Part shown: in pieces, positions 2,266 to 62,163 of the stretch | Layout: every line of letters starts with the position of its first letter | Numbering within the stretch: the stretch's first letter is position 1 | The notes under the pieces: generated by a model | Told to the model about the DNA's origin: nothing | The model's input: only the letters and a program-made list of their open reading frames with translations | Database searches by the model: none | Source: Escherichia coli | GTDB lineage: Bacteria > Pseudomonadota > Gammaproteobacteria > Enterobacterales > Enterobacteriaceae | NCBI RefSeq assembly: GCF_009931435.1 | Contig: NZ_CP043414.1 | Length of the DNA stretch: 64,000 nt | Reading direction: 5' to 3' (one strand) | Translations under genes and position numbers: made by a program

Positions 2266-2269
2266 AAAA

Positions 2270-20424: not shown

Positions 20425-20621
<197 letters not shown>

Positions 20622-41500: not shown

Positions 41501-44024
41501 CAATGGTTGAATTATTGGAGGCCAGCATGCCAACACTCCCCCGGCCGTACATTTGGATCTCACCGGCAGTATTATTTAAAGCGGTGCCATTGTTGCCTGC
41601 CGTCATCCCCGTCAGACTAATGACTTGATTATTAAAAATTAAAGGGTCACTCAAACCTTGAGCGTTCAGACTATTGAAAATACGTCCCTGCGCGAGTACC
41701 TTACTGGTGATGGCACTGTTATTAACAACTCGACCACCATAGACGCTCAAATACGCAGAACTAGCAGAGTCTGATGTATTCCCCTCTACGCCGTAGATAG
41801 AAATCGTTACGTTGTTATTATTTACAGCTAGCGACTCTTCACCAGTAGCCCTGGCAAAGCCAATATTACCCAGTTCTACATCACCATTATTTATCATCTG
41901 CGAACCGGAATTCACCAGTACAACCTGTGATGTGTCACTATTATAATGTTCAAATGTATTTATATCTTTTAGGATAAAAGTGGCGTTGCGGCCAAGTTCT
42001 AAATGGGCTCGGTTATTCAGTTGAATGATATCGCCTAATCCAAGCGGAAAAACACCACTGATTGTTGAATCCCCATTTAGATACAGAGTAGAGTGCCCAT
42101 CGATTTTGATAACAGGCGTATCGCCATAACCATTACGTTTTAAAGCAGGTGTGGAGCCATCCTGTAGAGTATTTTCTTCGCCAGCTAAATGGATACCACC
42201 ATTAATTTCGACGGTATTACCGTCACCCGACACAACCAGACCATTAATATTTTCCTGGCTGCCATCCATTTCATTATAGATACGAGAAGTGACTTCACTG
42301 TCAGCAACAACGGTAAGATTGCCATTTAATACGATATTATTGTCGTGTCCCTGCACCTGAATGCCAACAGAAGGGGTAAAAAAGTCATTTATTGAATGCT
42401 CTCCGGCCTGATTTTTATCCACCAGAATATTACCGGTAATTTCAACTTCATTGCCATCACCGGCTACATTTACCCCTGTCGCAACACTGCCGGTCACATT
42501 AAGCTCATTTGTCGCCAGCGTCATGGCGTTATTATTTCCAGAGACATCCAGACCGGTTGAATAATCCCCTACATCCACACGGCCAGCCAGAGAAATCAGA
42601 CCATCATCTCCGATGATGCGAATCCCGGTACTGAAATTATCAGCAATGATGTCCCCCACATTGATAAGGGTAGAATGATTACCCTCAATCAGAATCCCTG
42701 TCGCATTGGCCTCTGAACTACCATTACTGACGGATATATCCCCCCTGTTAATGAACGTCGACGCATCACCACTGAGAGAAACACCCTGCGAATTTTCATC
42801 CACGACCGTTATATTTCCTTTGTTGCTGACGATCGCGCCATTACCCTCAACATCAATACCCCGTGCAGCATTGCTAACGTATAAATCCCCTTCCTGTATA
42901 ACCGTCGCATTATTACCAACGATTTTGCTGCCCGTTGAATTTTGCCCATCAACCGTCATATGTCCTTTATTATCGGTCCTGACATCATTACCGCTAATAA
43001 CGGCCCCTATTCCGCCGTTATTGACAGTGGAGTCGCCAGTGTTATTTAAGATTGTACGATCGCCATTGACGATAACCGCCGTGCCAGCATCGACCACCGT
43101 CTGACCGTTATTATTGATGGTTATATTATCGCCGGTCAGGATACCGACCACCGAACCTTCACCGACAGCCTCTGTTTTACCCTCGTTTGTCAGCGCAATG
43201 TTGTTACCATTAATCATCATCACCGTGCCGCCATTCAGGGCCGTGTTACCGCCCTGGTCAGTGATAATCGCATCATTAACGGTAATTATTCTGTCCGTTG
43301 TTCCATCAGACACGACACTGGCTAACTGTGTGACGTGGAGTTTACCTTCGTCATCGTAGCGCCATTCCATATCACCTGTGGTACTCACACCACTAAACAT
43401 GGCGGTATGAGTCTCTTCATGGTTTTCCCACTCAGTCACAATGGTTTTTCGGCCATCTTTTGCCGTCAGCGTGTAGCTACCATCTTCATTTTGGGTATAA
43501 GTGAACGTCGCCCCGCGAATCTTCAGGGTTTGCGCGTCCTTGTCCCATGTCACATTGTTATCAAAGACAACGGGTTCTGTTCTCGGGGGGTCAACATCAT
43601 CACCGCTATTGTCGGGTGGAGTAACATTACCGCCGTTATCTGGCTTTACAGGTATACCTGAATCTTCATCACTGGGAACGGGTAGCGGTAGAGGGCCATT
43701 ATCATCTGGCGGTATGGGCTGGGGAAAAGAAGAGTGAGCAGAATGATCATTGTCATGAGACAATTCAATCACTGCGAGTGTTGCCAGTACCGCCGTGGCA
43801 CCTAATGCCAGTAACGAGCTGAAACCATTATTTGTAACAACAGCACATTTTTCTGGCACTGTTTTCAACTTCGTTGACGGTCGGGCGTGCCCTTCTGACT
43901 GACATGTCATTTGAGAGCTTCTGCGCATACTGTCTGCACTCTCGCCTTCTGTTATTTCCGCCCCCCAGCTTTGGCCACTTAACGCTATAGCGATACACGC
44001 TGATAATAACGTTTTCTTTTGCAT
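38532..44024 (-). CDS. ydbA: Giant autotransporter adhesin YdbA, uninterrupted 1830-aa frame
   Basis: Signal peptide, long degenerate beta-helical passenger repeats (N-x-G-x-I/V motifs) and C-terminal beta-barrel translocator ending ...MLNFKKTF. Confidence 0.9.
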   Translation of the reverse strand: MQKKTLLSACIAIALSGQSWGAEITEGESADSMRRSSQMTCQSEGHARPSTKLKTVPEKCAVVTNNGFSSLLALGATAVLATLAVIELSHDNDHSAHSSFPQPIPPDDNGPLPLPVPSDEDSGIPVKPDNGGNVTPPDNSGDDVDPPRTEPVVFDNNVTWDKDAQTLKIRGATFTYTQNEDGSYTLTAKDGRKTIVTEWENHEETHTAMFSGVSTTGDMEWRYDDEGKLHVTQLASVVSDGTTDRIITVNDAIITDQGGNTALNGGTVMMINGNNIALTNEGKTEAVGEGSVVGILTGDNITINNNGQTVVDAGTAVIVNGDRTILNNTGDSTVNNGGIGAVISGNDVRTDNKGHMTVDGQNSTGSKIVGNNATVIQEGDLYVSNAARGIDVEGNGAIVSNKGNITVVDENSQGVSLSGDASTFINRGDISVSNGSSEANATGILIEGNHSTLINVGDIIADNFSTGIRIIGDDGLISLAGRVDVGDYSTGLDVSGNNNAMTLATNELNVTGSVATGVNVAGDGNEVEITGNILVDKNQAGEHSINDFFTPSVGIQVQGHDNNIVLNGNLTVVADSEVTSRIYNEMDGSQENINGLVVSGDGNTVEINGGIHLAGEENTLQDGSTPALKRNGYGDTPVIKIDGHSTLYLNGDSTISGVFPLGLGDIIQLNNRAHLELGRNATFILKDINTFEHYNSDTSQVVLVNSGSQMINNGDVELGNIGFARATGEESLAVNNNNVTISIYGVEGNTSDSASSAYLSVYGGRVVNNSAITSKVLAQGRIFNSLNAQGLSDPLIFNNQVISLTGMTAGNNGTALNNTAGEIQMYGRGSVGMLASNNSTIDNMGKIFIDALWVDENDTSSLASNIAHDSAKDYAVGMAVGTDSSGASVNSTAINQQGGEITLYNSGAGMAAMKPGNIIINQGTINLEVNENDDDTLGPNKLVGMAVYNGATAINDQTGIININAENGQAFYNDGSGTIVNYGSICTFGKCQDNNAYNPTDGFVSLSWRNGDIISADGETLNLYSYGGTTDITATAETLVTNTGTVTGGPVTVADFGHLVNETTGSIIEVDIATGGEYTNHGTTKTVSVDGGVFTNEGTVSGQVGTTVAGSVIHNSGSINTVDQWASNFYNTGTVNAWKGSSGSAVMNNQAGGKVEKITFAAASTFNNAGTVNNASVDKGGTFNNLEGSVATVATNALWTGHFNNWGTVEGDMRISTGGDGHTFYNGQSGFINGQILTSNTASKAINDGIINIDKNSNVAMSAHGKAKMINNGTINVGTQGTTRTGMVGMQLESDATADAVIENNGTINIYASNSYAFSKLGSNGHIVNNGTVYIDDSVNGSGLIKQSGTVMEGSGEGGDGTEVHYVDFTAPEEPTITPYDDSHSSSVSRNDGMNNLNGYVVGTNADGSAGKLMVNNASMKGVEINTAFAAGTADKTASFDDVVQGSNLTDAQAITSTSVVWQATGSTDASGNVDVTMSKKAYTDVATDASVNDVAKALDAGYTNNELYTSLNVGTTAELNSALKQISGSQATTVFREARVLSNRFSMLADAAPKMGNGLAFNVVAKGDPRAELGNNTEYDMLALRKTLDLSENQTMSLEYGIARLDGDGAQKAGDNGVTGGYSQFFGLKHQMSFDNGMSWNNALRYDIHQLDSSRSVAYGDISKTADTNVKQQYLEFRSEGAKTFEPREGLKITPYAGVKLRHTLEGDYQERNAGDFNLSMNSGSETAVDSIVGLKLDYAGKDGWSANATLEGGPNLSYSKSQRTASLAGAGSQHFNVDDGQKGGGINSLASVGVKYSSKESSLNLDAYHWKEDGISDKGVMLNFKKTF

Positions 44025-44670
44025 GAGAAATCCTTTTCAATGAATGACATTTCAAATAATAAAATATGAGTAATAGATAAGAAATAGCCACAGGCTGTGT
44101 CATGATTTAATGCCTGCTCTTGAAATTTTATTTAGCAATCCCAGAACATTCAACTTAATTAGTATTTCGAAACCTCAATGTAGACACATAAAAAACAAAT
44201 TATTCGATTACTTAGGCTATTTGTTGCATTAATACACATCCTCTAACAATAATCAGACAAAAAGCAATGTCAGCGTCAAATTGGGTAGCTGATTCATATT
44301 ACTGACCACTCCGGAAATTCATTCATCGTGAAAATATTAACATTTCAACCATGTTCCATTTAATCAACCCACTGAAAATCTGGAGGTTATCTACTGCGGT
44401 TTGTTGTTGACTGCCCCTGACAGGTTTACCAGGCGTTGACAGAAGATGAGGCTTGCAAGATGCTAAAAACAATGTGGTGTTACAAGCAATCCCATAAACC
44501 TCGTAACTTCACTTAAATGAGCGATGCCGTCCATATTTGGGTTGACTATAAAAACCCTTAATATTGAGGTTGATGATGATATTCATGATGGCATTGGAAA
44601 AATAGGACACCCATAAAATATCTATACAGCCTTTAAATTAAATCATTGAAATATCGCTGTTGCATAGTGC

Positions 44671-44997
44671 TTATTTTTGCAACCATTTCCCGTTAATTCC
44701 CTGCACATATTCCCCCGGTTTGGCCCGAGCTACAAGCTTTTGTCCGGCAAGCTTCGCGATATCATCTACCGATACATTATTTTGCTTTGCCAGTTGTTGA
44801 TAACTCACTTTACGTGCGGCATTAATCTCGGTTACTAATTTCTCTGTTTCAGCATCCGTTTTCAACGCAACCAAATAACCGTTAAATGTTTCACCTACCC
44901 GCCCCTGAATTCTGGCCTCGTCCAGTGTTAATGCCACTACATTGCTGCTTACCAGTCCAACAAGAAACGCACAAAGAAGTAATGTTTTCTTCATCAT
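44671..44997 (-). CDS. ydbL: Periplasmic protein YdbL (DUF1318)
   Basis: Start set at MMKKTLLLCAFLVGLVSS (signal peptide); the listed ORF extends 26 codons upstream into ynbE. Confidence 0.85.
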   Translation of the reverse strand: MMKKTLLLCAFLVGLVSSNVVALTLDEARIQGRVGETFNGYLVALKTDAETEKLVTEINAARKVSYQQLAKQNNVSVDDIAKLAGQKLVARAKPGEYVQGINGKWLQK

Positions 44998-45001
44998 CCC
45001 C

Positions 45002-45187
45002 TCAGAAAAGATCGCTACGGGTTTTGAGTAAATCTTCGACATCTTTGTCTGCCTTAATGATGATCTCATGCTCAATTTTAACGTTCATATTGATAGTGAT
45101 CGGTTCCTTAGGTGCAGCGACTTCAATGCGAGGCGTACAGCCAACCAGCATAAAAGATGACGTCAACGCAGCCAGTAAAATTTTCAT
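45002..45187 (-). CDS. ynbE: Lipoprotein YnbE
   Basis: 61-aa ORF MKILLAALTSSFMLVGCTPRIE... with lipobox; 4-nt overlap with ydbH. Confidence 0.9.
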   Translation of the reverse strand: MKILLAALTSSFMLVGCTPRIEVAAPKEPITINMNVKIEHEIIIKADKDVEDLLKTRSDLF

Positions 45188-47823
45188 TGTTTTTCCTCAC
45201 ACCCTTTTCCTTGCGGACAGCCATTTTCCGGCAGACGCGCGTTCTGCTCCAACCATGCCTGGAGATTATCGCCAAAGCGTAAACTGCGCCACAGGGTAAA
45301 AATATTCTCTTCATGATGGTAATTAAGGTTTACCGTACCACTTTTACCGTCGACGCGACTGGTACCTGTAATATTGGCCTGCATGGTTAACACACCAAGA
45401 TTATCTAAATTAATTTTTGTCGATGAACGGCTAATTTCCATATAGCGCAACCAGTTAATCGCTGAACCCGCAGTCATATTGTCTTTCACCACCGCATCTG
45501 CGGTGTCTTTATCCAGCCGCAAAGTCATTGGTCCGCTATTTGCCAGCCAGCCGTCTTTAACTATCCATTTTTCATTGTTCAGCCATAAAGGCAATGCCCC
45601 ACTAAATGCCCCGGACATGGCGAATTGTTTCGGATTGACGGCGCTAACCAGTTCGCTGGATGAGAGATTATTCAGCCGCAACAGCGCCGGGTCATGTTGC
45701 GGCATGCGTAATTGTTTCATCAGCACGTTACCGCCTAACACATCGACGCTAACATCGGTCAACAACAATGGTTCGTCTTCACTCCACGGATAACGCCCTT
45801 GCAAGTCAGCCGTAATATTTTTCGCTGTCACCAGATTAATCACTTCGGCAATTCGCAACGTAACGGGGCCGCGAGTCCCCAGATGCCAGGCTCCATCGGC
45901 AAAACGGAAAGGCAGGACAAAATCGACACCGTTGACCTGATTATCTGGCATCCAGGCACTACCGCCTTTCAACACACCGTGCCCTCCCGCGCGGAATCCT
46001 TGTTCAGGCGCAGCAGAAAATGCAACCTGGGCATACAGCTCGCCATCGCGTAAGTTCATCTTCCAGTCGGGTGGCACCAACGGTTGAAACACAGTCAACG
46101 ATTGCTTAGGCCACCAGGCGTTACCGCGCAGGCGAATGCCGTCCCAGCGTCCATTTACCTGCACCGGCCCAATCTCACCAGCATGTAAATCCCCTTTGAA
46201 GAGGAAATATGTCGGATCGCGTCCATCGACACTAAATTTTAAGGTTGATGGCGGTAACACACTGCCACCCGTGAACAGCGTTTGCCCGGCGTCCAGTGAC
46301 AGCGCGCCGCTGAACGAAGGATTCTGCACATCACGTACCCAGACGACGGGCTTGTCGAGAATCAATCGCGGCTTTTCTACCGTCATTGTCCCGTATTGCA
46401 ATTTGTCAAAGCCGGTTGAGAGATCGGTCAGCGTAATCGTGCTGTCATGCCACTCACCTTTTCCTGCGACATCCCAGGTGGCATTCATCGGTGTAAAACT
46501 CCCTTTTCCCCAGTAGCGCCACTGCCAGCGGCCAGCGTCAGGGAGAAAATCATTCGCCAGCCCATCCATATGCAGTACGAAATCGCCCAGTTCATTTTCA
46601 TGCGCCTGCAAAATGGCCTGCAAACGTCCGTCAACACCACGTTGGGTGACTTTTACACCCGCTAAAGGCCAGCGGATTTCATCAATATCCAGCGAATCGA
46701 TGACTCTTCCCTTCGAACGTAATAACGCGCCTGGCTCAAAGGCCAGCGTTGGGTCAGTCAGACTTCCGCTTAGCTGCGCAGGTAAACGGGCATATAAAAT
46801 GAGGTCCGCCTGTTTCGCTTCACCGGTCAGTTGCATAGGCAGCTGGCTGTTATCCATGCTTAATTTTCCTGGGCCAAAATTAAGCACCGCGTTGCCCTTA
46901 CCCGCTTGCCCCTGGGTCAGCACACTCAGTCGTCCGCTGACCAGAGCATTCTCAAGCCCTGCCTGCCAGTTGTCGACTTTGACACCCAGTCGTCCACTCA
47001 AAGGAAAACCTGCATACGGCCAGCTCCAGCGACCATCGCTTACGGTCAATTGTTGGCGAGTAATTTGCCACGGCAGATCGAGCAACGGATCGCCGTTATC
47101 CCGTGCCAGCACAATCAATTGCCCGCTATTTTCCTGCCAGTCCAGCTCGGCATCCACCAGTGAAGGCTCCTGCGGCAAGTTTAACGTCGCAGTAGCATGA
47201 CCACTTACAGGAAGTCCATCCGGCACTAGCGGCATAGTAAATTCCCCCACCAGTTTAACTGGCGGCTGATTTTCAAACGCGACGACATCCAGTTCGCTGA
47301 CTGTAAGTTGTTGCCCTTTCAGCTGGCCTTGAAATTTAACTTTTTCGCCCTGATAACGCAGTTGCTGGATATCGGAGTTTAATGCGAGAGAGAGTTTTCC
47401 CTGCCATTCCTGCCAGGGAGAAAAAATCAGTTTATCGATATTGATCCAGGTGTTAGGCAACATGGCCTGCCACTGCGCGAGGGTTTTCGGAGCGGCTGGC
47501 GATTGCTCCGTCTGCGGCAATTTCGCCAGACAAGCAGAATCAAGTTCTACCGTGCCGACGTTCAATAACCAGCGGCTGGGATGAGAAAGGCTGGCGTTTG
47601 TGATATGTGCAAGCTGACAATCTCCTACCAGATAACGGAGATCGGGAATGATTAAACCTTTACGCGTAATGCGTGGGCTTTCATCTAAAGCAATACGTGT
47701 GCCGAGCGGTAGCCAGATGCCCGCCAGCGTGGGAACCCACAACCCGAGCGTCATCAGTAGCGTCAACGGCACAAGAATAATCAGTAATAGCAGCGCGAGA
47801 ACGGCTTTATATTTACCCAACAT
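45184..47823 (-). CDS. ydbH: AsmA-like large protein YdbH
   Basis: 879-aa ORF with N-terminal TM anchor; operon ydbH-ynbE-ydbL. Confidence 0.9.
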   Translation of the reverse strand: MLGKYKAVLALLLLIILVPLTLLMTLGLWVPTLAGIWLPLGTRIALDESPRITRKGLIIPDLRYLVGDCQLAHITNASLSHPSRWLLNVGTVELDSACLAKLPQTEQSPAAPKTLAQWQAMLPNTWINIDKLIFSPWQEWQGKLSLALNSDIQQLRYQGEKVKFQGQLKGQQLTVSELDVVAFENQPPVKLVGEFTMPLVPDGLPVSGHATATLNLPQEPSLVDAELDWQENSGQLIVLARDNGDPLLDLPWQITRQQLTVSDGRWSWPYAGFPLSGRLGVKVDNWQAGLENALVSGRLSVLTQGQAGKGNAVLNFGPGKLSMDNSQLPMQLTGEAKQADLILYARLPAQLSGSLTDPTLAFEPGALLRSKGRVIDSLDIDEIRWPLAGVKVTQRGVDGRLQAILQAHENELGDFVLHMDGLANDFLPDAGRWQWRYWGKGSFTPMNATWDVAGKGEWHDSTITLTDLSTGFDKLQYGTMTVEKPRLILDKPVVWVRDVQNPSFSGALSLDAGQTLFTGGSVLPPSTLKFSVDGRDPTYFLFKGDLHAGEIGPVQVNGRWDGIRLRGNAWWPKQSLTVFQPLVPPDWKMNLRDGELYAQVAFSAAPEQGFRAGGHGVLKGGSAWMPDNQVNGVDFVLPFRFADGAWHLGTRGPVTLRIAEVINLVTAKNITADLQGRYPWSEDEPLLLTDVSVDVLGGNVLMKQLRMPQHDPALLRLNNLSSSELVSAVNPKQFAMSGAFSGALPLWLNNEKWIVKDGWLANSGPMTLRLDKDTADAVVKDNMTAGSAINWLRYMEISRSSTKINLDNLGVLTMQANITGTSRVDGKSGTVNLNYHHEENIFTLWRSLRFGDNLQAWLEQNARLPENGCPQGKGCEEKQ

Positions 47824-48030
47824 GGGTAGTTAATATCCTGATTTAGCGAAAAATTAAGCATTCAATACGGGTATTGTGGCATGTTTAACCGTTCAGTTGA
47901 AGGTTGCGCCTACACTAAGCATAGTTGTTGATGAATTTTTCAATATCGCCATAGCTTTCAATTATATTTGAAATTTTGTAAAATATTTTCAGTAGCTTAA
48001 ATGTGATTCAACATCACTGGAGAAAGTCTT

Positions 48031-49020
48031 ATGAAACTCGCCGTTTATAGCACAAAACAGTACGACAAGAAGTACCTGCAACAGGTGAACGAGTCCTTTG
48101 GCTTTGAGCTGGAATTTTTTGACTTTCTGCTGACGGAAAAAACCGCTAAAACGGCCAATGGCTGCGAAGCGGTATGTATTTTCGTAAACGATGACGGCAG
48201 CCGCCCGGTGCTGGAAGAACTGAAAAAGCACGGCGTTAAATATATCGCCCTGCGCTGTGCCGGTTTCAATAACGTTGACCTTGACGCAGCAAAAGAACTA
48301 GGGCTGAAAGTAGTCCGTGTTCCAGCCTATGATCCAGAAGCTGTTGCTGAACACGCCATCGGTATGATGATGACGCTGAACCGCCGTATCCATCGCGCAT
48401 ATCAGCGTACGCGTGACGCCAACTTCTCTCTGGAAGGTCTGACCGGCTTTACCATGTATGGCAAAACGGCAGGCGTTATCGGTACTGGTAAAATCGGTGT
48501 GGCGATGCTGCGCATTCTCAAAGGTTTTGGAATGCGTCTGCTGGCGTTCGATCCGTATCCAAGTGCGGCGGCGCTGGAACTCGGTGTGGAGTATGTCGAT
48601 CTGCCAACCCTGTTCTCTGAATCAGACGTTATCTCTCTGCACTGCCCGCTGACACCGGAAAACTACCATCTGTTGAACGAAGCCGCCTTCGATCAGATGA
48701 AAAATGGCGTGATGATCGTCAATACCAGTCGCGGTGCATTGATTGATTCTCAGGCGGCAATTGAAGCGCTGAAAAATCAGAAAATTGGTTCGTTGGGTAT
48801 GGACGTGTATGAAAACGAACGCGATCTGTTCTTTGAAGATAAATCCAACGACGTAATCCAGGATGATGTCTTCCGTCGTCTGTCTGCCTGCCACAACGTG
48901 CTGTTTACCGGGCACCAGGCATTCCTGACAGCAGAAGCTCTGACCAGTATTTCCCAAACTACCCTGCAAAACTTAAGCAATCTGGAAAAAGGCGAAACCT
49001 GCCCGAACGAACTGGTTTAA
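48031..49020 (+). CDS. ldhA: Fermentative D-lactate dehydrogenase LdhA
   Basis: 329-aa D-2-hydroxyacid dehydrogenase with NAD-binding GxGxxG (GVIGTGKIGVAM). Confidence 0.95.
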   Translation: MKLAVYSTKQYDKKYLQQVNESFGFELEFFDFLLTEKTAKTANGCEAVCIFVNDDGSRPVLEELKKHGVKYIALRCAGFNNVDLDAAKELGLKVVRVPAYDPEAVAEHAIGMMMTLNRRIHRAYQRTRDANFSLEGLTGFTMYGKTAGVIGTGKIGVAMLRILKGFGMRLLAFDPYPSAAALELGVEYVDLPTLFSESDVISLHCPLTPENYHLLNEAAFDQMKNGVMIVNTSRGALIDSQAAIEALKNQKIGSLGMDVYENERDLFFEDKSNDVIQDDVFRRLSACHNVLFTGHQAFLTAEALTSISQTTLQNLSNLEKGETCPNELV

Positions 49021-49130
49021 TCTTGCCGCTCCCCTGTACGCCAGGGGAGCTTATTCAGATAATCCCCAAAGATATTTCATCCTCTATTCTTAAAATATTC
49101 CTCAGTCAGAAACCGTAATTGAGAACCACA

Positions 49131-49553
49131 ATGAAGAAAGTAGCCGCGCTTGTTGCGCTAAGCCTGCTGATGGCGGGATGTGTAAGTAATGACAAAATTG
49201 CTGTAACCCCAGAACAGCTACAGCATCATCGCTTTGTGCTGGAAAGCGTAAACGGTAAGCCCGTGACCAGCGATAAAAACCCGCCAGAAATCAGCTTTGG
49301 TGAAAAGATGATGATTTCCGGCAGCATGTGTAACCGCTTTAGCGGTGAAGGCAAACTGTCAAATGGTGAACTGACAGCCAAAGGGCTGGCAATGACCCGT
49401 ATGATGTGCGCTAACCCGCAGCTTAATGAACTCGATAACACCATTAGCGAAATGCTGAAAGAAGGTGCACAAGTGGATCTGACCGCGAACCAGTTAACGC
49501 TGGCGACCGCGAAACAGACATTAACTTATAAGCTGGCGGATTTAATGAATTAA
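49131..49553 (+). CDS. hslJ: Heat-shock lipoprotein HslJ
   Basis: Start set at MKKVAALVALSLLMAGCVSN (140 aa, lipobox). Confidence 0.9.
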   Translation: MKKVAALVALSLLMAGCVSNDKIAVTPEQLQHHRFVLESVNGKPVTSDKNPPEISFGEKMMISGSMCNRFSGEGKLSNGELTAKGLAMTRMMCANPQLNELDNTISEMLKEGAQVDLTANQLTLATAKQTLTYKLADLMN

Positions 49554-49816
49554 TAGCTGCCACAGCTCCCGGCGGCAAGTGACTGTTCGCTACAGCGTTT
49601 GCCGTTGGGTAATGCACACATCCCAATCGCCGTACCATCCAGTTGACGGGCAACAGAAAGCGAACCGCCGATCATTGCACAATTTGCTTCTCCACTACTG
49701 GACATCGACACTTTTAAACCTGGCGCTACGTGCGCCGCAGTCGCCTGCTGAACAGGTTCACTACTACACGCCGACAATAATAAAGCGGCACACCCTACCC
49801 AAAACGCTGCTCGCAT
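49550..49816 (-). CDS. ydbJ: Lipoprotein YdbJ (DUF333)
   Basis: 88-aa ORF MRAAFWVGCAALLLSACSS... Confidence 0.9.
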   Translation of the reverse strand: MRAAFWVGCAALLLSACSSEPVQQATAAHVAPGLKVSMSSSGEANCAMIGGSLSVARQLDGTAIGMCALPNGKRCSEQSLAAGSCGSY

Positions 49817-50089
49817 CTTTTCTTCCTCTGATCTTCAAGCCAAACGACACCGCCATAAATAATAGGCAGCACAGAGGGCGGCGTCGAGAGCTGTCCTGCG
49901 CGTTGCCCCGCATTTTTACTTTTTTATGGCTATTTTTTTGCCCTCTGTTTGATCAAAACATTCATTACGCTGATGTGGGGGACACAAAAGCGAAAATGCA
50001 GAAGAAAGCCATTTGCTAAAATTGAAAGATAACTACTGGGCGCGCAGCAATTTCGTGCGCCCCTCATTTGCGCAATGTAAGGGTGTCAT

Positions 50090-53000
50090 ATGATTACTAT
50101 TGACGGTAATGGCGCGGTTGCTTCGGTGGCGTTTCGCACCAGTGAAGTTATCGCCATCTACCCTATTACCCCCAGTTCCACGATGGCAGAACAGGCTGAT
50201 GCATGGGCCGGAAACGGCTTGAAAAACGTTTGGGGAGACACACCACGCGTGGTTGAAATGCAGTCGGAAGCGGGTGCTATCGCTACCGTGCATGGTGCTT
50301 TGCAAACTGGCGCCCTCTCAACATCGTTTACGTCATCGCAGGGTTTGCTGCTGATGATCCCAACGCTGTACAAACTGGCAGGCGAACTGACGCCGTTTGT
50401 CCTGCATGTTGCGGCTCGTACCGTTGCCACACATGCACTCTCTATTTTTGGCGATCATTCCGACGTCATGGCAGTGCGCCAGACGGGTTGCGCGATGTTG
50501 TGTGCAGCAAACGTCCAGGAGGCGCAAGACTTTGCTCTCATTACGCACATTGCGACGCTGAAAAGTCGCGTGCCATTTATTCATTTCTTTGATGGTTTCC
50601 GCACCTCCCACGAGATCAATAAAATTGTCCCGCTGGCCGATGACACTATTCTTGAACTGATGCCGCAGGCAGAAATTGATGCTCATCGCGCCCGTGCACT
50701 CAACCCGGAACATCCGGTGATCCGCGGTACGTCCGCCAATCCTGACACTTATTTCCAGTCTCGCGAAGCCACCAACCCATGGTACAACGCAGTCTATGAC
50801 CATGTTGAACAGGCAATGAATGATTTCGCTGCCGCGACAGGTCGCCAGTATCAGCCGTTTGAGTATTACGGGCATCCACAAGCGGAACGGGTGATTATCC
50901 TGATGGGCTCTGCCATTGGCACATGTGAAGAAGTGGTTGATGAATTGCTGACCCGTGGCGAAAAAGTCGGCGTGCTGAAAGTTCGCCTGTACCGCCCCTT
51001 CTCCGCCAAACACTTACTGCAAGCATTGCCGGACTCTGTTCGGATAGTGGCGGTGCTGGATCGCACCAAAGAGCCAGGTGCGCAAGCGGAACCCCTGTAT
51101 CTGGATGTGATGACTGCACTGGCAGAAGCCTTTAATAATGGCGAGCGCGAAACCCTGCCCCGTGTCATCGGCGGGCGCTATGGTCTTTCATCCAAAGAAT
51201 TTGGCCCGGACTGTGTACTGGCGGTATTTGCCGAGCTCAACGCGGCTAAACCGAAAGCGCGCTTTACGGTTGGTATTTACGATGATGTGACCAATCTGTC
51301 ACTTCCGTTACCGGAAAACACCCTGCCAAACTCGGCGAAACTGGAAGCCTTGTTTTATGGTCTTGGTAGTGATGGCAGCGTTTCCGCGACCAAAAACAAT
51401 ATCAAAATTATCGGTAATTCCACGCCGTGGTACGCACAGGGCTATTTTGTTTACGACTCCAAAAAGGCAGGCGGCCTGACGGTTTCTCACCTTCGCGTGA
51501 GCGAGCAGCCGATTCGTTCCGCTTATCTCATTTCCCAGGCTGATTTTGTTGGCTGTCACCAGTTGCAGTTTATCGACAAATATCAGATGGCTGAACGTTT
51601 GAAACCTGGCGGCATTTTCCTGCTCAACACGCCGTACAGCGCAGAGGAAGTGTGGTCGCGCTTACCGCAGGAAGTTCAGGCCGTGCTAAACCAGAAAAAA
51701 GCGCGTTTCTATGTGATTAACGCGGCGAAAATTGCCCGCGAATGTGGCCTGGCGGCCCGTATTAATACTGTCATGCAGATGGCATTTTTCCATTTGACAC
51801 AAATTCTGCCTGGCGATAGCGCCCTGGCCGAATTGCAGGGCGCGATTGCCAAAAGCTACAGCAGCAAAGGCCAGGATCTGGTGGAACGCAACTGGCAGGC
51901 TCTGGCACTGGCGCGTGAATCGGTAGAAGAAGTTCCGCTGCAGCCGGTTAATCCGCACAGCGCCAATCGACCGCCTGTGGTTTCCGATGCTGCTCCTGAT
52001 TTCGTGAAAACCGTTACCGCTGCGATGCTCGCCGGACTTGGCGATGCTCTCCCCGTTTCGGCGCTGCCGCCAGACGGCACCTGGCCGATGGGTACCACCC
52101 GCTGGGAAAAACGCAATATTGCCGAAGAGATCCCCATCTGGAAAGAGGAACTCTGTACCCAATGTAACCACTGCGTTGCCGCTTGCCCACACTCAGCTAT
52201 TCGCGCCAAAGTGGTGCCGCCTGAAGCAATGGAAAATGCCCCTGCCAGCCTGCATTCGCTGGATGTAAAATCGCGTGATATGCGCGGGCAGAAATATGTC
52301 TTGCAGGTAGCTCCGGAAGATTGCACCGGCTGTAACCTGTGCGTCGAAGTTTGCCCGGCGAAAGACCGTCAGGATCCAGAGATTAAAGCCATCAATATGA
52401 TGTCGCGCCTGGAACATGTCGAGGAAGAGAAAATCAATTACGACTTCTTCCTGAATTTACCAGAAATCGATCGCAGCAAACTGGAACGTATTGATATTCG
52501 TACATCGCAACTGATTACACCGCTGTTTGAATATTCAGGTGCTTGCTCTGGTTGTGGCGAGACGCCGTATATTAAATTGCTGACTCAGCTCTATGGCGAT
52601 CGGATGTTGATCGCTAACGCTACGGGTTGTTCTTCAATTTATGGCGGTAACCTGCCCTCTACACCGTATACTACCGATGCCAACGGTCGTGGACCGGCAT
52701 GGGCGAACTCGCTGTTTGAAGATAACGCCGAATTTGGCCTTGGTTTCCGCCTGACGGTCGATCAACACCGTGTCCGCGTGCTGCGTCTGCTGGATCAATT
52801 TGCCGATAAAATCCCGGCGGAATTACTGACTGCGTTGAAATCAGACGCCACGCCAGAGGTTCGTCGTGAACAGGTTGCAGCTTTACGTCAGCAACTCAAC
52901 GATGTTGCCGAAGCACATGAACTGCTACGTGATGCAGATGCACTGGTGGAAAAATCGATCTGGCTGATTGGTGGCGATGGCTGGGCTTACGATATCGGCT

Positions 53001-53614
53001 TTGGCGGTTTGGATCATGTATTGAGTTTGACGGAAAACGTCAACATTCTGGTGCTGGATACGCAATGCTATTCCAATACCGGTGGTCAGGCGTCAAAAGC
53101 CACGCCGCTTGGCGCGGTGACTAAGTTTGGCGAGCACGGCAAACGTAAAGCGCGTAAAGATCTTGGCGTCAGTATGATGATGTACGGTCATGTTTATGTG
53201 GCGCAGATTTCTCTCGGCGCGCAGCTCAACCAGACGGTGAAAGCGATTCAGGAAGCGGAAGCGTATCCGGGGCCATCGCTGATCATCGCTTATAGCCCGT
53301 GTGAAGAGCATGGTTACGATCTGGCACTCAGTCACGACCAGATGCGCCAACTCACTGCTACCGGCTTCTGGCCGCTATATCGCTTTGATCCGCGTCGTGC
53401 CGATGAAGGCAAACTGCCGCTGGCGCTGGATTCACGACCGCCGTCAGAAGCACTGGAAGAAACGTTACTTCACGAGCAGCGTTTCCGTCGTCTGAATTCG
53501 CAGCAGCCAGAAGTGGCAGAACAGTTATGGAAAGATGCCGCAGCTGATTTGCAAAAACGCTATGACTTCCTGGCACAAATGGCCGGAAAAGCGGAAAAAA
53601 GCAACACCGATTAA
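50090..53614 (+). CDS. ydbK: Pyruvate:flavodoxin oxidoreductase YdbK (PFOR/NifJ family)
   Basis: 1174-aa ORF with two 4Fe-4S ferredoxin CxxCxxCxxxCP motifs and a TPP-binding domain. Confidence 0.95.
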   Translation: MITIDGNGAVASVAFRTSEVIAIYPITPSSTMAEQADAWAGNGLKNVWGDTPRVVEMQSEAGAIATVHGALQTGALSTSFTSSQGLLLMIPTLYKLAGELTPFVLHVAARTVATHALSIFGDHSDVMAVRQTGCAMLCAANVQEAQDFALITHIATLKSRVPFIHFFDGFRTSHEINKIVPLADDTILELMPQAEIDAHRARALNPEHPVIRGTSANPDTYFQSREATNPWYNAVYDHVEQAMNDFAAATGRQYQPFEYYGHPQAERVIILMGSAIGTCEEVVDELLTRGEKVGVLKVRLYRPFSAKHLLQALPDSVRIVAVLDRTKEPGAQAEPLYLDVMTALAEAFNNGERETLPRVIGGRYGLSSKEFGPDCVLAVFAELNAAKPKARFTVGIYDDVTNLSLPLPENTLPNSAKLEALFYGLGSDGSVSATKNNIKIIGNSTPWYAQGYFVYDSKKAGGLTVSHLRVSEQPIRSAYLISQADFVGCHQLQFIDKYQMAERLKPGGIFLLNTPYSAEEVWSRLPQEVQAVLNQKKARFYVINAAKIARECGLAARINTVMQMAFFHLTQILPGDSALAELQGAIAKSYSSKGQDLVERNWQALALARESVEEVPLQPVNPHSANRPPVVSDAAPDFVKTVTAAMLAGLGDALPVSALPPDGTWPMGTTRWEKRNIAEEIPIWKEELCTQCNHCVAACPHSAIRAKVVPPEAMENAPASLHSLDVKSRDMRGQKYVLQVAPEDCTGCNLCVEVCPAKDRQDPEIKAINMMSRLEHVEEEKINYDFFLNLPEIDRSKLERIDIRTSQLITPLFEYSGACSGCGETPYIKLLTQLYGDRMLIANATGCSSIYGGNLPSTPYTTDANGRGPAWANSLFEDNAEFGLGFRLTVDQHRVRVLRLLDQFADKIPAELLTALKSDATPEVRREQVAALRQQLNDVAEAHELLRDADALVEKSIWLIGGDGWAYDIGFGGLDHVLSLTENVNILVLDTQCYSNTGGQASKATPLGAVTKFGEHGKRKARKDLGVSMMMYGHVYVAQISLGAQLNQTVKAIQEAEAYPGPSLIIAYSPCEEHGYDLALSHDQMRQLTATGFWPLYRFDPRRADEGKLPLALDSRPPSEALEETLLHEQRFRRLNSQQPEVAEQLWKDAAADLQKRYDFLAQMAGKAEKSNTD

Positions 53615-53642
53615 ATGCTCTGGATAAGGATTATCCAATTCT

Positions 53643-53752
53643 AAAAAAAAGCCCGGACGACTGTTCGGGCTTGTCTTTTTATATGTTGGAAAATCAGTGG
53701 CAATGCAATGGCCCAACAGAAAATAAAATCTGTGACAATAAAGGCATATAAC
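53643..53752 (-). ncRNA. micC: MicC small RNA (Hfq-dependent regulator of ompC), divergent from ompN
   Basis: Minus-strand sequence GTTATATGCCTTTATTGTCACAGATTTTATTTTCTGTTGGGCC...GCCCGAACAGTCGTCCGGGCTTTTTTT matches MicC as recalled; its terminator hairpin also follows the ydbK stop. Confidence 0.9.
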
Positions 53753-53979
53753 TCGCGCAGAATAACGTATAGCAAATTAAAAGTATAATTTTTATTTTGT
53801 ATGTATTATCTTCGATACATTCACCAGACTTATTATCATTTCAGAGGAATTATTTGATTAAGGTTTTACTTAAGGCGTAACAAATGATATTTATCGGCTA
53901 ACTGAACTTCTCCTTTAGGATGTTTTCATTCCCCGAAATGGGGATAAAAGGCAAATAAAATAACTAAAGGATTTATTCA

Positions 53980-55113
53980 ATGAAAAGCAAAGTACTGGCA
54001 CTTTTAATTCCTGCCCTGCTCGCCGCAGGTGCTGCACATGCAGCCGAAGTTTATAATAAAGACGGCAACAAATTAGATCTGTATGGCAAAGTTGATGGCC
54101 TGCATTATTTTTCTGATAATTCAGCGAAAGATGGCGACCAGAGCTATGCGCGTCTGGGTTTTAAAGGCGAAACCCAAATTAACGATCAACTTACTGGCTA
54201 CGGTCAATGGGAATACAATATTCAGGCAAACAACACTGAATCTTCAAAAAACCAGTCATGGACCCGTCTGGCATTTGCCGGACTGAAATTTGCAAATTAC
54301 GGTTCTTTCGATTACGGACGTAATTATGGCGTACTGTACGACATCGAAGGCTGGACCGATATGCTGCCTGAATTTGGCGGTGACTCTTATACCAATGCAG
54401 ACAACTTTATGACTGGTCGTGCCAATGGCGTCGCGACTTATCGTAACACTGATTTCTTCGGTCTGGTAAATGGTCTGAACTTCGCGGTGCAGTATCAAGG
54501 TAACAACGAAGGAGCCAGTAATGGTCAGGAAGGCACCAACAACGGACGTGATGTTCGCCATGAAAACGGTGACGGCTGGGGTCTTTCCACAACATATGAT
54601 TTAGGCATGGGCTTTAGCGCTGGTGCGGCATACACCTCTTCTGACCGCACCAATGACCAGGTTAACCATACTGCGGCTGATGGTGATAAAGCAGACGCGT
54701 GGACTGCTGGGCTAAAATACGATGCTAACAATATTTACCTGGCAACCATGTATTCAGAAACGCGTAATATGACCCCGTTTGGCGACAGCGATTATGCTGT
54801 TGCAAACAAAACCCAGAACTTTGAAGTCACTGCACAGTACCAGTTTGATTCTGGTCTGCGTCCGGCAGTCTCTTTCCTGATGTCTAAAGGCCGTGACCTG
54901 CACGCTGCCGGTGGTGCAGACAACCCGGCAGGTGTTGATGATAAAGATCTGGTTAAATACGCCGATGTTGGCGCGACTTACTATTTCAACAAAAATATGT
55001 CCACCTACGTTGACTATAAAATCAACCTGTTGGATGAAGATGACAGCTTCTACGCTGCCAACGGCATCTCTACCGATGATATTGTCGCTTTAGGTCTGGT
55101 TTATCAGTTCTAA
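53980..55113 (+). CDS. ompN: Outer-membrane porin OmpN
   Basis: 377-aa general-porin ORF with signal peptide and C-terminal ...LGLVYQF. Confidence 0.95.
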
Positions 55114-55121
55114 ATCCTCCT

Positions 55122-55146
55122 GCCCGCTGTTATGGCGGGCTTTTTC
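55122..55146 (+). terminator. Intrinsic terminator of ompN
   Basis: GCCCGC-TGTTATG-GCGGGC followed by TTTTT. Confidence 0.8.
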
Positions 55147-55172
55147 TGCTTATTCTTCCTCCTTTGATCTAA

Positions 55173-55688
<516 letters not shown>

Positions 55689-55695
55689 CACTAAC

Positions 55696-55721
55696 GCCCG
55701 CACATTGCTGCGGGCTTTTTG
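55696..55721 (+). terminator. Intrinsic terminator of uspF
   Basis: GCCCGCA-CATTGC-TGCGGGC followed by TTTTT. Confidence 0.8.
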
Positions 55722-55863
55722 ATTCATTTCGCAAATGTGCTGACATTTTCCCCTCTAATCCGTACCATACACGCCACAGTTTTTATATCAGATTTCTTAT
55801 GCTGGGCGTTCCGGCATGACGCATACTCTTCTGATGCCATATAACGAATTGAGTCGCTTTTAA

Positions 55864-56799
55864 ATGTCGCAAAATCAAGAAATTAGTAAGAAAGAACAAT
55901 ACAATCTCAACAAATTACAAAAACGTCTGCGTCGTAACGTGGGCGAAGCCATTGCTGACTTCAATATGATTGAAGAAGGCGATCGCATCATGGTTTGCCT
56001 CTCCGGGGGTAAAGACAGCTATACCATGCTGGAGATTCTGCGCAATTTGCAGCAAAGCGCGCCAATCAATTTTTCGCTGGTGGCTGTTAACCTCGATCAA
56101 AAGCAACCGGGCTTCCCGGAACACGTTCTGCCCGAGTATCTTGAAAAGCTGGGCATTGAGTACAAGATTGTGGAAGAGAACACTTACGGTATCGTGAAAG
56201 AGAAGATTCCGGAGGGCAAAACCACTTGCTCACTGTGTTCTCGTCTTCGTCGCGGAATTCTTTACCGTACCGCAACGGAACTGGGAGCGACGAAGATCGC
56301 GCTGGGTCACCATCGTGACGATATCCTGCAAACGTTGTTCTTAAATATGTTCTACGGCGGCAAGATGAAAGGTATGCCTCCGAAACTGATGAGCGATGAT
56401 GGCAAACATATTGTGATTCGTCCGCTGGCCTACTGCCGCGAGAAAGATATTCAGCGCTTTGCCGATGCAAAAGCGTTCCCGATTATTCCGTGCAACCTGT
56501 GCGGTTCACAGCCTAACCTGCAACGTCAGGTGATTGCTGACATGTTGCGTGACTGGGATAAACGTTATCCGGGGCGTATCGAGACGATGTTCAGCGCGAT
56601 GCAGAATGTGGTGCCGTCGCATCTGTGCGATACCAACCTGTTCGATTTCAAAGGCATTACCCACGGTTCTGAAGTGGTTAACGGGGGTGATCTGGCGTTT
56701 GATCGCGAAGAGATCCCTCTACAACCGGCGGGTTGGCAGCCTGAAGAAGATGAAAATCAGTTGGATGAGTTACGACTGAATGTGGTTGAAGTGAAATAA
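55864..56799 (+). CDS. ttcA: tRNA 2-thiocytidine(32) synthetase TtcA, intact
   Basis: 311-aa ORF with PP-loop SGGKDS and Cys clusters. Confidence 0.95.
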
Positions 56800-56808
56800 C
56801 CCGGATAG

Positions 56809-56881
56809 CGCCCGATGCGCAAGCTTATCGGGCTACTCTTATGGAGGCCGGATAAGACGCGGCCAGCGTCGCATCCGGCAA
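56809..56881. repeat. REP/BIME repeat cluster between ttcA and dbpA
   Basis: Palindromic GCCCGATGCGCAAGCTTATCGGGC and GGCCGGATAAGACGCGGCCAGCGTCGCATCCGGC. Confidence 0.6.
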
Positions 56882-56927
56882 TCCCGAAGAAGATGTTTAC
56901 TCTTGCACCCTGCGATTCAACATTTCA

Positions 56928-58301
56928 TTATTTTAATAACCGCACCCGGCACGTTTTTCCTTTAATCTTCCCGCCCTGTAACTGTTTCCATGCTTTATGA
57001 GCAACAGCCTGACGCACCGCGACATAGACATGCGCCGGATGCACGGCGATTTTGCCAATATCTGCGCCATCAAGCCCGATATCTCCTGTCAGCGCACCTA
57101 ATACATCACCCGGGCGCATTTTGGCTTTTTTCCCGCCATCGATACATAACGTTGCCATTTCTGCTTCCAGCGGCACAATGGAACTATTAACTGGCGGCGT
57201 TTGCCAGTTAAGTTTTATCTGCAACATGTCAGAAATGATATTGGCCCGCTGTGCTTCTTCCGGGGCACAGAAACTGATCGCCAGACCGCTATTTCCTGCA
57301 CGCGCTGTACGACCGATGCGATGTACATGAACTTCAGGGTCCCACGCCAGTTCAAAGTTCACTACCAGCTCAAGCGATTTAATATCAAGACCACGCGCAG
57401 CAACATCCGTCGCGACCAGCACACGAGCGCTACCGTTAGCAAAACGTACCAGGGTCTGATCGCGGTCACGTTGCTCCAGATCGCCATGTAACGACAATGC
57501 ACTTTGCCCTATGTCATTCAGCGCGTCGCAGACAGCCTGACAATCTTTTTTGGTATTGCAAAACACCACGCAAGAGGATGGCTGATGCAAACTTAATAAC
57601 CGTTGCAACAGCGGAATTTTGCCTTTGCTGGATGTCTCATAAAATTGTTGTTCAATGGGAGGCAGAGCATCTGTTGAGTCAATTTCAATCGCCAATGGCT
57701 CGCGTTGAACTCGTCCGCTGATTGCGGTGATGGCTTCCGGCCAGGTTGCCGAAAACAGAAGCGTCTGTCGAGATGCTGGCGCAAAACGGATAACATCATC
57801 AATGGCATCGCTAAATCCCATATCCAGCATGCGATCGGCTTCATCCATCACCAGCATATTCAACGCATCCAGTGATACCGTGCCTTTTTGCAGATGGTCC
57901 AGCAAACGACCTGGGGTTGCCACGATAATATGCGGCGCATGTTGCAACGAATCACGCTGCATACCGAACGGTTGACCACCGCACAAAGTCAAAATTTTGG
58001 TATTTGGCAGAAAACGCGCCAGCCGACGCAATTCACCTGCCACCTGATCCGCCAGTTCACGCGTAGGGCACAGCACTAAAGCCTGGGTCTGAAATAGCGA
58101 CGCATCAATTTTCTGTAGCAGCCCGAGGCCAAAAGCCGCCGTTTTGCCGCTGCCGGTTTTCGCCTGCACGCGAACATCTTTTCCGGCAAGGATCGCCGGA
58201 AGCGCGGCAGCCTGCACCGGCGTCATAGTCAAATAACCCAACTCATTAAGGTTCGTGAGTTGGGCGGGAGGCAAAACATTCAGGGTAGAAAAAGCGGTCA
58301 C
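56928..58301 (-). CDS. dbpA: ATP-dependent 23S rRNA-specific RNA helicase DbpA (DEAD-box)
   Basis: 457-aa ORF with AKTGSGKT Walker A, DEAD motif (VMDEADRM), SAT and C-terminal RNA-binding domain. Confidence 0.95.
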   Translation of the reverse strand: MTAFSTLNVLPPAQLTNLNELGYLTMTPVQAAALPAILAGKDVRVQAKTGSGKTAAFGLGLLQKIDASLFQTQALVLCPTRELADQVAGELRRLARFLPNTKILTLCGGQPFGMQRDSLQHAPHIIVATPGRLLDHLQKGTVSLDALNMLVMDEADRMLDMGFSDAIDDVIRFAPASRQTLLFSATWPEAITAISGRVQREPLAIEIDSTDALPPIEQQFYETSSKGKIPLLQRLLSLHQPSSCVVFCNTKKDCQAVCDALNDIGQSALSLHGDLEQRDRDQTLVRFANGSARVLVATDVAARGLDIKSLELVVNFELAWDPEVHVHRIGRTARAGNSGLAISFCAPEEAQRANIISDMLQIKLNWQTPPVNSSIVPLEAEMATLCIDGGKKAKMRPGDVLGALTGDIGLDGADIGKIAVHPAHVYVAVRQAVAHKAWKQLQGGKIKGKTCRVRLLK

Positions 58302-58331
58302 AATCTGTTCTCGTGGTCATCGACGCAAAAA

Positions 58332-58505
58332 TTAGCAAGCGCGTATCCTCGCAGATCTACGCTCACGATGCGACAATTTAATCGGTTCTTCATCGGGTGG
58401 TGGGTCAGGCATGGGTTGCGGGCGAGGGATTGGATCGGGCACTGGAACAGGATCGCCAGGAATCGGTTCAGGGACAGGAATTTGCAAATAAATGAGTGTC
58501 GTCAT
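58332..58505 (-). CDS. Candidate small proline-rich protein (57 aa) immediately upstream of dbpA; not in ORF track
   Basis: Manual translation MTTLIYLQIPVPEPIPGDPVPVPDPIPRPQPMPDPPPDEEPIKLSHRERRSARIRAC; GGAGGG Shine-Dalgarno about 6 nt before the ATG; stop 31 nt upstream of the dbpA start. Confidence 0.4.
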   Translation of the reverse strand: MTTLIYLQIPVPEPIPGDPVPVPDPIPRPQPMPDPPPDEEPIKLSHRERRSARIRAC

Positions 58506-58562
58506 ATTTCCCTCCGGTCATTGGGTGGACTCTTAAAGGGTAGACGCTGATATATAACAGGC

Positions 58563-58684
58563 AAAAAAAAGCCGACTCATCAAAGTCGGCGTCGTACGAA
58601 TCAATTGTGCTATGCAGTAATTCAAAAAAGGAAGTAAGACAATATGGAGCGCAACGCCCATCGCTTGACGTTGCATTCACCTGC
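58563..58684 (-). ncRNA. fnrS: FnrS small RNA (FNR-activated, Hfq-dependent)
   Basis: Minus-strand GCAGGTGAATGCAACGTCAAGCGATGGGCGTTGCGCTCC...GCCGACTTTGATGAGTCGGCTTTTTTTT matches FnrS as recalled. Confidence 0.9.
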
Positions 58685-58719
58685 AAGAGAGATATTGCCC
58701 TGAATGGGTAGAGAGTTTA

Positions 58720-58733
58720 TTGACTTCGCTCAA
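58720..58733 (-). promoter_or_regulatory. FNR binding site (class II position) in the fnrS promoter
   Basis: Minus-strand TTGAG-CGAA-GTCAA (consensus TTGAT-N4-ATCAA) centred about 42 nt upstream of the fnrS 5' end. Confidence 0.6.
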
Positions 58734-58779
58734 ACTTTGCGGCGTTTTTGTATACAGATAGTAGGGAAAATTGCTGTTG

Positions 58780-59784
<1,005 letters not shown>

Positions 59785-62061: not shown

Positions 62062-62155
62062 ACCGGCGCAGAGGAGACCATGCCGGATTTAAGACGCGGA
62101 TGCACTGCTGTGTGTACTGTAGAGTCTGGCGGATGTCGACAGACTCTATTTTTTT
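62062..62155 (+). ncRNA. mcaS: McaS (IsrA) small RNA
   Basis: ACCGGCGCAGAGGAGACCATGCCGGATTTAAGACGCGGATGCACTGCTGTGTGTACTGTAGAGTCTGGCGGATGTCGACAGACTCTATTTTTTT in the abgR-smrA intergenic region matches McaS as recalled, including the terminator hairpin. Confidence 0.85.
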
Positions 62156-62163
62156 ATGCAGTT

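Follow-up and report, generated by a model that had tools for sequence, protein, structure and literature searches.

We examined a stretch of 64,000 nt from Escherichia coli (contig NZ_CP043414.1, assembly GCF_009931435.1), and this whole stretch is called the window throughout. Near its right end the genes uspF and ttcA lie side by side, and the locus is laid out as follows.

53980-55113, ompN, to the left of uspF
55254-55688, + strand, uspF coding sequence, an ORF of 144 codons so annotated in matching genomes, the left neighbour of the site
55696-55720, + strand, intrinsic terminator of uspF, stem-loop 55696-55715 plus T-run (terminator scan, RNA folding)
55864-56799, + strand, intact ttcA, 311 codons, with the non-lysogen N-terminus (ORF, K-12 alignment, TtcA' of Liu et al. 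2015)
56928-58301, dbpA, convergent to ttcA

The spacer between the uspF stop codon (ending at 55688) and the ttcA ATG (55864) measured exactly 175 nt, from 55689 to 55863. The uspF terminator comprises a 7-bp GC-rich stem followed by TTTTT (-14.1 kcal/mol; z = -3.9), and none of 200 shuffled sequences folded equally well. The original prediction of an intact ttcA following uspF after a 175-bp intergenic region with a normal terminator was thus correct in each part. No Rfam family was matched within the spacer. The UspF protein was 93% identical to that of E. albertii and 92% identical to that of Citrobacter werkmanii.

In K-12 (NC_000913.3) the Rac prophage occupies 1411899-1434958, between ttcA and uspF, and the 51-nt pseudogene ttcC is left beside uspF, which agrees with the arrangement that had been given for that strain, Rac with a duplicated fragment of ttcA. 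Alignment to K-12 across the Rac junctions placed the two K-12 flanks at window positions 60811-55871 and 55913-50874, so that they adjoin with an overlap of 43 nt and the prophage interior is missing. The 23 kb of Rac interior DNA between the K-12 flanks gave no blastn match within the 64-kb window, and 28 Rac proteins gave no tblastn match there at E<=0.01; no Rac integrase or excisionase gene was detected nearby. The claim that no Rac prophage sits at ttcA was therefore upheld by contiguous flanks and by the lack of Rac DNA or protein matches, and the locus is an unoccupied attB of the Rac-family (IntR) phages. Across the 175 nt of the spacer, the sole difference from K-12 was one T fewer in the T-run at 55773-55778.

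The attachment site itself was located from the K-12 junctions, and the associated features are given below.

55888-55913, + strand, 26-nt attB core of Rac-family phages in ttcA codons 9-17, here AAGAAAGAACAATACAATCTCAACAA
55871-55913, + strand, extended att homology, 43 nt aligning to both K-12 junctions
55906-55913, + strand, likely strand-exchange segment, CTGAACAA in phages and CTCAACAA here (from junction polymorphisms)
55873-55885, - strand, predicted IHF site adjoining the core, TAATTTCTTGATT, read from the sequence as a match to TAAnnnnTTGATW

It was noted that the attL and attR of K-12 are identical over a 26-nt core, AAGAAAGAACAATACAACCTGAACAA, with imperfect homology reaching back to the ttcA ATG, and that the record of phage Rac-SA53 (KU052037.1) annotates the same 26 nt as attP/attB. 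Both the IHF consensus and IHF binding at the K-12 attL have been described (PMC8407004). In the window the core is present in a single copy at the expected position of ttcA and matches K-12 and Rac-SA53 at 24 of 26 positions; the two differences, T for C at 55905 (core position 18) and C for G at 55908 (core position 21), are both synonymous. A search for the core within the intergenic region, as originally suggested, would fail because the core lies inside ttcA: it was not found in 55689-55863, and homology to the junctions begins at 55871. Of the unoccupied attachment site that had been predicted, the emptiness stood, but the details did not, since the core sits in ttcA rather than in the spacer and the spacer carries a relic of an integrase gene, as described below.

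The position of strand exchange was narrowed from polymorphisms at occupied sites. The junctions of strain 042, read directly from its sequence, carry T18 at attR (the uspF side) and C18 at attL (the ttcA side). In both Rac-SA53 and 042, phage bases occupy core positions 9-11 on the ttcA side (attL) only, and attB and attP diverge at core position 27. From these positions (9-11, 18, and 27) strand exchange most likely falls in core positions 19-26, although the attL of E. albertii is at odds with a strict 19-26 overlap. The two core differences of the window lie near this segment and may affect the competence of its attB for Rac-type integration. The exact 96-nt junction 55850-55945, which spans the core, was absent from 5,426 complete E. 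coli genomes (best match 95/96), and the same core allele was found in the draft assemblies GCA_009899175.1 and GCA_903976805.1 and in Enterobacter asburiae.

Recombination by the tyrosine integrase at the 26-nt core severs ttcA from its own promoter and its first 8 codons, for which the phage supplies replacements. The predicted TtcA of the window begins MSQNQEIS, compared with MQENQQITKK in K-12. MSQNQEIS is the TtcA' form reported from non-lysogens and from K-12 after Rac excision (Liu et al. 2015, PMC4632033). The ttcC fragment of K-12 is the original 5' end of ttcA, and the working ttcA of K-12 has a phage-supplied 5' end; hence the window, without Rac, encodes the TtcA' form, and with nothing inserted its ttcA keeps the resident 5' end. 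Published accounts of what Rac excision does to TtcA vary, with four amino acid changes given in PMC4632033 and Q6E plus T8S from "three base changes" given in PMC11014345. The K-12 junction sequences predict four changes (Q2S, E3Q, Q6E, and T8S).

We then assessed how common the empty site is. The genes uspF and ttcA were contiguous in 2,487 of the 5,426 complete E. coli genomes (46%; 2,490 by the 96-nt junction probe), and nearly all of the remainder break at the equivalent of window position 55871, with 54% carrying something there. An empty Rac site is therefore ordinary in E. coli, and the question is one of prevalence rather than of chance. The best match to the window among these genomes was 98.7% identical over 25 kb, and a segment of 15.5 kb (44090-59614) was 100.000% identical to VTMS01000008.1 of GCA_009899175.1. 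An identical 1,174-aa PFOR (ydbK) protein was encoded on 24 contigs, and uspF adjoins ttcA on the two that were displayed; the other 22 were collapsed as mostly having the same neighbouring proteins, and all of them are closely related, not independent, samples.

In a sensitive comparison with Rac, the spacer first showed a 15-nt exact match inside intR, and this match belongs to a longer island. Two overlapping features were assigned in the spacer.

55733-55783, + strand, 51-nt island of integrase origin, relic of the box II coding segment of a Rac-family intR (similarity to K-12 intR)
55740-55768, + strand, predicted sigma-70 promoter of ttcA, CTGACA (55740-55745), 17 nt, TACCAT (55763-55768) (promoter scan)

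The island is identical to the coding strand of K-12 intR at 39 of 51 positions, including the 15-nt run, and its local alignment score of 42 was reached by none of 300 shuffled sequences (17.5 +/- 2.0), lying about 12 SD above their mean. Translated in frame, 55733-55807 gives KCADIFPSNPYHTRHSFYIRFLMLG, which agrees with IntR residues 345-369, KRAGIRRRNPYHTRHTFACWLLTAG, at 13 of 25 amino acids, among them NPYHTRH. The matched segment is the catalytic box II motif within the Phage_integrase domain of IntR (Pfam; residues 205-391). The island is found, moreover, on the int side of ttcA, shares its strand, and has the orientation of intR in lysogens. When the spacer was compared with 2.3 Gb of phage DNA, the best matches outside the flanks were Rac-type integrase genes only (E = 0.4). 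When the rest of the spacer, 55784-55863, was compared with the 3' end of int and with the int-ttcA spacer, scores were at the level of shuffled sequence, and only the 51-nt island is claimed for this reason. We infer that an earlier Rac-family integrase gene was the source of the island, which stems from its box II coding segment (K-R-A-G-I-R-R-R-N-P-Y-H-T-R-H-T-F).

The relic amounts to about 25 codons without an int ORF, and no functional recombinase is encoded by it. An identical island lies beside ttcC in K-12, and the relic is common to Citrobacter, so it is not specific to this strain and is no sign of Rac here. Integrase remnants in the spacer had been named as evidence that would speak against an empty site; such a remnant is formally present, but it is an old relic and not Rac itself. 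On the best reading, the "empty" site is itself the scar of an earlier integration, whose left flank was kept as the ttcA promoter. No description of an integrase relic upstream of ttcA was found in the open-access literature searched.

The predicted promoter matches the sigma-70 hexamers at 9 of 12 positions, with an expected start near 55775, and the scan is weak on its own, as equally many such sites occur in shuffled sequence. The T-run that differs from K-12 lies downstream of this start. An RpoD-holoenzyme SELEX site written as CTGACA-17-TACCAT has been reported from the uspF-ynaE spacer of K-12 and assigned to ynaE (Shimada et al. 2014, PMC3946193); the underlying peak was obtained in vitro with K-12 DNA and is not base-resolved. 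We determined that this string is unique in the K-12 uspF-ynaE spacer and identical to window 55740-55768. The main text of Shimada et al. (PMC3946193) held no entry for a site inside intR. No mapped transcription start for ttcA was found in the open-access literature searched. A Keio deletion strain exists for ttcA (PMC4632033), so the gene is not essential and selection for keeping it expressed may be weak.

Comparison of relics from other species added to the case for a promoter. Among five diverged non-coding relics, mean pairwise identity was 0.83 for the -35 hexamer, 0.93 for the -10 hexamer, and 0.93 for AATCCG just upstream of the -10, while the 5' part of the spacer reached only 0.41 and the flanks 0.37-0.38. 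The spacing between the hexamers was 17 nt in 11 of 11 relics. Conserved hexamers beside a drifting 5' spacer are a promoter-like pattern, and we infer that the island works as the ttcA promoter in vivo.

Because the island derives from a coding segment, intact integrase genes were compared over the same region. A first scan of phage contigs with K-12 IntR returned only copies that were 99-100% identical, and a second scan with the Int of Enterobacter cloacae gave diversity. The seven intact int lineages averaged 67% nucleotide identity. Their identity at third codon positions was 0.3-0.45 up to codon 343, rose to about 0.9 over codons 344-364, reaching 1.00 at most codons of this 63-nt block, and then dropped. 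At codons whose amino acid is invariant, codon identity was 0.86 in the block versus 0.40 elsewhere (Mann-Whitney p = 2.6e-7). This freezing of synonymous sites points to a DNA-level element embedded in the int coding sequence, and the promoter copy inside intact int genes presumably fires. The embedded -35 (CTGGTA) matches consensus at only 3 of 6 positions, and the freezing in intact int genes extends to the spacer and to some 20 nt beyond the -10. The frozen block is thus wider than a plain sigma-70 promoter needs, and a protein-binding site or another element may overlap it.

A second, weaker zone of raised third-position identity (0.66-0.75, as compared with 0.3-0.45 across the gene) was observed downstream of the main block, at int codons 371-390 (for example L001 5064-5123, minus strand), and this zone would fall within the 5' UTR of a ttcA transcript from the embedded promoter. 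A terminator-like hairpin noticed by eye in the int block was dropped as a candidate, being weak and lost in relics.

We sought the same elements elsewhere by scanning species-representative genomes with TtcA, which gave 80 loci, Salmonella being outside this sample. Among these species representatives, ttcA was preceded by intact int genes at 3 loci, by C-terminal int pseudogenes at 6, and by isolated islands at 9 besides that of the window, these being the three states seen in the Enterobacterales. The pseudogenes begin at residues 288, 303, 309, 325, 327, or 342 (in E. albertii, Kluyvera, Brenneria, and others). Isolated islands of about 50 nt with unalignable flanks were found in Pseudocitrobacter, Superficieibacter, Pectobacterium, Mangrovibacter, E. 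asburiae, Citrobacter, and E. coli, and more diverged islands lie upstream of ttcA in Budvicia and Salinivibrio. Codons of about 345-357 were kept at every locus with an intact int, a pseudogene, or an island, and the distance from island to ATG falls from 219 nt to 61-133 nt in relics. The islands of E. coli and Citrobacter appear orthologous, as they are alike and both adjoin uspF. No island was found upstream of ttcA in Yersinia, Serratia, Rosenbergiella, Providencia, and others. The young islands are 1-4 mismatches from int, and they could be this similar because they are recent and not because they are selected; homologous recombination from island to island could have produced their sharp left edge.

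In E. albertii the native island was halved by a deletion reaching int codon 288 or thereabouts, so that the one copy still present upstream of ttcA is that embedded in int. In strain NBRC 107761 (L013 640-720, 2596-2946) the native island ends after CTGACGTTTTCCC, and an int pseudogene with stop codons is followed by phage-type ttcA codons joined to a core with T18 and C21.

Taken as a whole, these observations are quite probably explained by an empty attB of the Rac family at which ttcA is read from an integrase-fossil promoter at 55740-55768. A fuller history can be proposed. The int genes of Rac-family phages would carry an outward-facing promoter element in codons 344-364, and in a lysogen this embedded element, about 220 nt upstream of ttcA, would maintain ttcA transcription. 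Where the prophage then decayed by deletion, the host would keep the piece of int that holds the promoter, and in the Escherichia/Citrobacter lineage such a fossil would have become the resident ttcA promoter. A new Rac integration would turn this fossil toward the cargo at the right end of the prophage, ttcC-ynaM-ynaE in K-12 and sitABCD in 042. We regard it as an evenly balanced proposition that the box II-embedded int promoter takes over ttcA, that the E. coli/Citrobacter promoter is such a fossil domesticated, and that each Rac integration swaps one promoter for the other.

Among the alternatives, it is unlikely, though not negligibly so, that the island derives from integrase without being a promoter, the frozen block being instead a phage cis-site (for arm-type Int, Xis, or IHF binding) or a recombination anchor, with sharp-edged relics produced when recombination between the resident and the int-embedded island deletes the prophage. 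Such a role would suit a 63-nt block that is invariant in its entirety in intact int genes, through the spacer and some 20 nt past the -10, and islands that begin within a few nucleotides of a common left edge in several genera; in lysogens the two island copies also form direct repeats flanking the prophage. However, the block is about 230-290 nt away from the exchange site, a distance exceeding lambda-type arms, and old relics keep the hexamers, AATCCG, and the 17-nt spacing and lose the 5' spacer, which is the signature of a promoter. As for an anchor, the exact run common to int and the native island of E. coli is only 15 nt, less than efficient RecA recombination requires, and in E. albertii the deletion stops at int codon 288 and not at the island. 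Moreover, RNA polymerase holoenzyme was reported to bind the native copy in vitro (PMC3946193).

A shade less probable is that the lineage recently harboured a Rac-type prophage that left by precise Int/Xis excision. Excision of this kind leaves no scar and gives back precisely the TtcA' 5' end observed in the window (PMC4632033), and more than half of E. coli genomes (the 54% noted above) are occupied at the site. The resulting sequence would nonetheless be the same as if the site had stayed vacant from the formation of the old fossil onward. The closest relatives by comparison over 25 kb are empty, as are the contigs of the lineage (2 displayed of 24), and the core has lineage-specific bases unlike those of E. 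coli Rac cores.

Doubtful to a somewhat greater degree is the idea that the attB is refractory, with C21 (the G-to-C change at 55908) in the inferred overlap forming a heterology with the CTGAACAA core common to all the E. coli Rac-type phages seen. Heterology in the overlap blocks lambda integration, and since the junction polymorphisms put exchange beyond core position 18 and short of 27, any overlap of 6-8 nt there would include position 21. T18 alone is compatible with occupancy and was seen at attR in at least 12 complete genomes, C21 was seen at a Rac-type attR in no complete genome, and the displayed contigs of the window's lineage are empty. Yet those contigs come from close relatives and are not independent samples, and the 46% of E. 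coli genomes with an empty site have the standard core. In E. albertii, the attL joins 5' codons of the K-12 phage type to a T18/C21 core identical to that of the window, and C21 is likewise present in the relics of Enterobacter sp. Bisph1 and Brenneria. Either phages of this type have integrated at the allele or there are phages whose core matches it, and we downgraded the idea on account of the E. albertii attL and the C21 relics of these two other genera.

It is very improbable that the site is pristine, ordinary promoter DNA never touched by a phage and resembling intR by chance or convergence, for although the similarity in E. coli is confined to 51 nt in a spacer otherwise no better than shuffles and reached only E = 0.4 against the whole phage database, it exceeds every shuffle, falls in frame on the catalytic box II in the right orientation and on the right side of ttcA, has as its top database matches exactly the integrases that target ttcA, and belongs to a continuous series seen in other genera, in which int is intact, then a pseudogene, then an island, with a Salinivibrio relic differing from int synonymously (TAT for TAC, ACC for ACG) as former coding DNA would.

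The preferred reading of a ttcA promoter retained from an integrase gene can be set beside several known systems. The closest is the Rac attB and TtcA' described by Liu et al. (2015, Sci Rep, PMC4632033), which shares with the window the gene, the 26-nt core, and the MSQNQEIS N-terminus; the window differs in the two synonymous core positions and in what is described here for its upstream flank, the integrase relic. The non-lysogen form is called an "ancient copy" in that paper, the searched passages of which are silent on the upstream region. Phages that integrate in icd (e14) or in tRNA genes likewise bring a surrogate gene end on attP and leave the target intact after integration (PMC6379469). 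Unlike e14 at icd, the ttcA system replaces the 5' end of its target, so the phage must replace the promoter too, and the candidate replacement lies inside the int coding sequence.

The lambda pI promoter is embedded in xis and drives the phage's own int gene. As with pI, a sigma-70-type promoter, here a predicted one, overlaps a coding sequence beside att and constrains its synonymous sites; unlike pI, the element here points outward at a host gene, and hosts keep it once the phage is lost. Grounded or decayed prophages with int pseudogenes next to att (PMC6379469) similarly retain the int-proximal end after deletion, whereas the ttcA relic is a block of about 50 nt with promoter-like conservation that occurs repeatedly across many genera and has become fixed in E. 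coli. The CTGACA-17-TACCAT site is listed as an RpoD "constitutive promoter" at 30.86 min in K-12 (PMC3946193) and is identical in sequence in the window; the K-12 copy faces ttcC-ynaM-ynaE, as Rac intervenes, whereas the window copy faces ttcA. Its integrase ancestry is not noted in the main text of that paper.

A Rac-free ttcA locus is routine, with nearly half of complete E. coli genomes lacking a prophage there, and the TtcA' form has been published. What is added here is an integrase fossil apparently serving as the ttcA promoter, paired with a synonymously constrained block in living int genes. A presumed ancestral empty site would then be a prophage scar, which alters the reading of "ancient" and "phage-modified" ttcA. 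The pair would also show cleanly how an overlapping cis-element constrains coding sequence, and would offer a testable instance of a phage integrase gene giving rise to a host promoter. Also suggested are a way in which phages severing a gene from its promoter may spare the host and one by which cargo at a prophage end, such as sitABCD, could come under a host promoter. For annotation, remnants of att at the ttcA locus should be sought inside ttcA and not in the spacer.

Several further observations were made at occupied sites. In strain 042 (NC_017626.1; L010 44325-47774, L011) the ttcA site is occupied by a full-length Rac-like prophage about 50 kb long. At its right end sitABCD lies directly downstream of uspF-ttcC on the same strand, so that transcription from the native ttcA promoter could run into this cargo, an iron/manganese transporter. 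The record ON032529.1 (L005), named "Salmonella phage SPF_0923", contains host ompN, uspF, and the native spacer followed by sitAB, and appears to be prophage-derived sequence that includes bacterial flank.

Elsewhere in the window, Rfam matches at gathering score were recorded for five RNAs.

20326-20477, + strand, sok (sokB)
21037-21100, + strand, RydC
53635-53755, - strand, MicC
58567-58684, - strand, FnrS
62062-62157, + strand, McaS

The window also departs from K-12 at other places. About 4.3 kb at 621-4918 is absent from K-12 and inserted at hicAB, where hicA is missing and a hicB remnant is split. This segment includes IS3-family transposase ORFs at 836-2012 (rve and HTH_Tnp_1 domains), of which orfB is apparently split, a 188-aa ORF without a Pfam match at 2974-3540, and a 259-aa ORF with an LprI domain at 3887-4666. 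The IS609 element of K-12 (insQ/yncK) is absent at 9382/9383, where the ydcL and ydcO sides are contiguous. At 39847-44673 the window lacks the K-12 cluster feaR-feaB-tynA-paa, some 26 kb long, and the interval contains a divergent autotransporter segment of the ydbA/BigA type, as in strain 2013C-4282.
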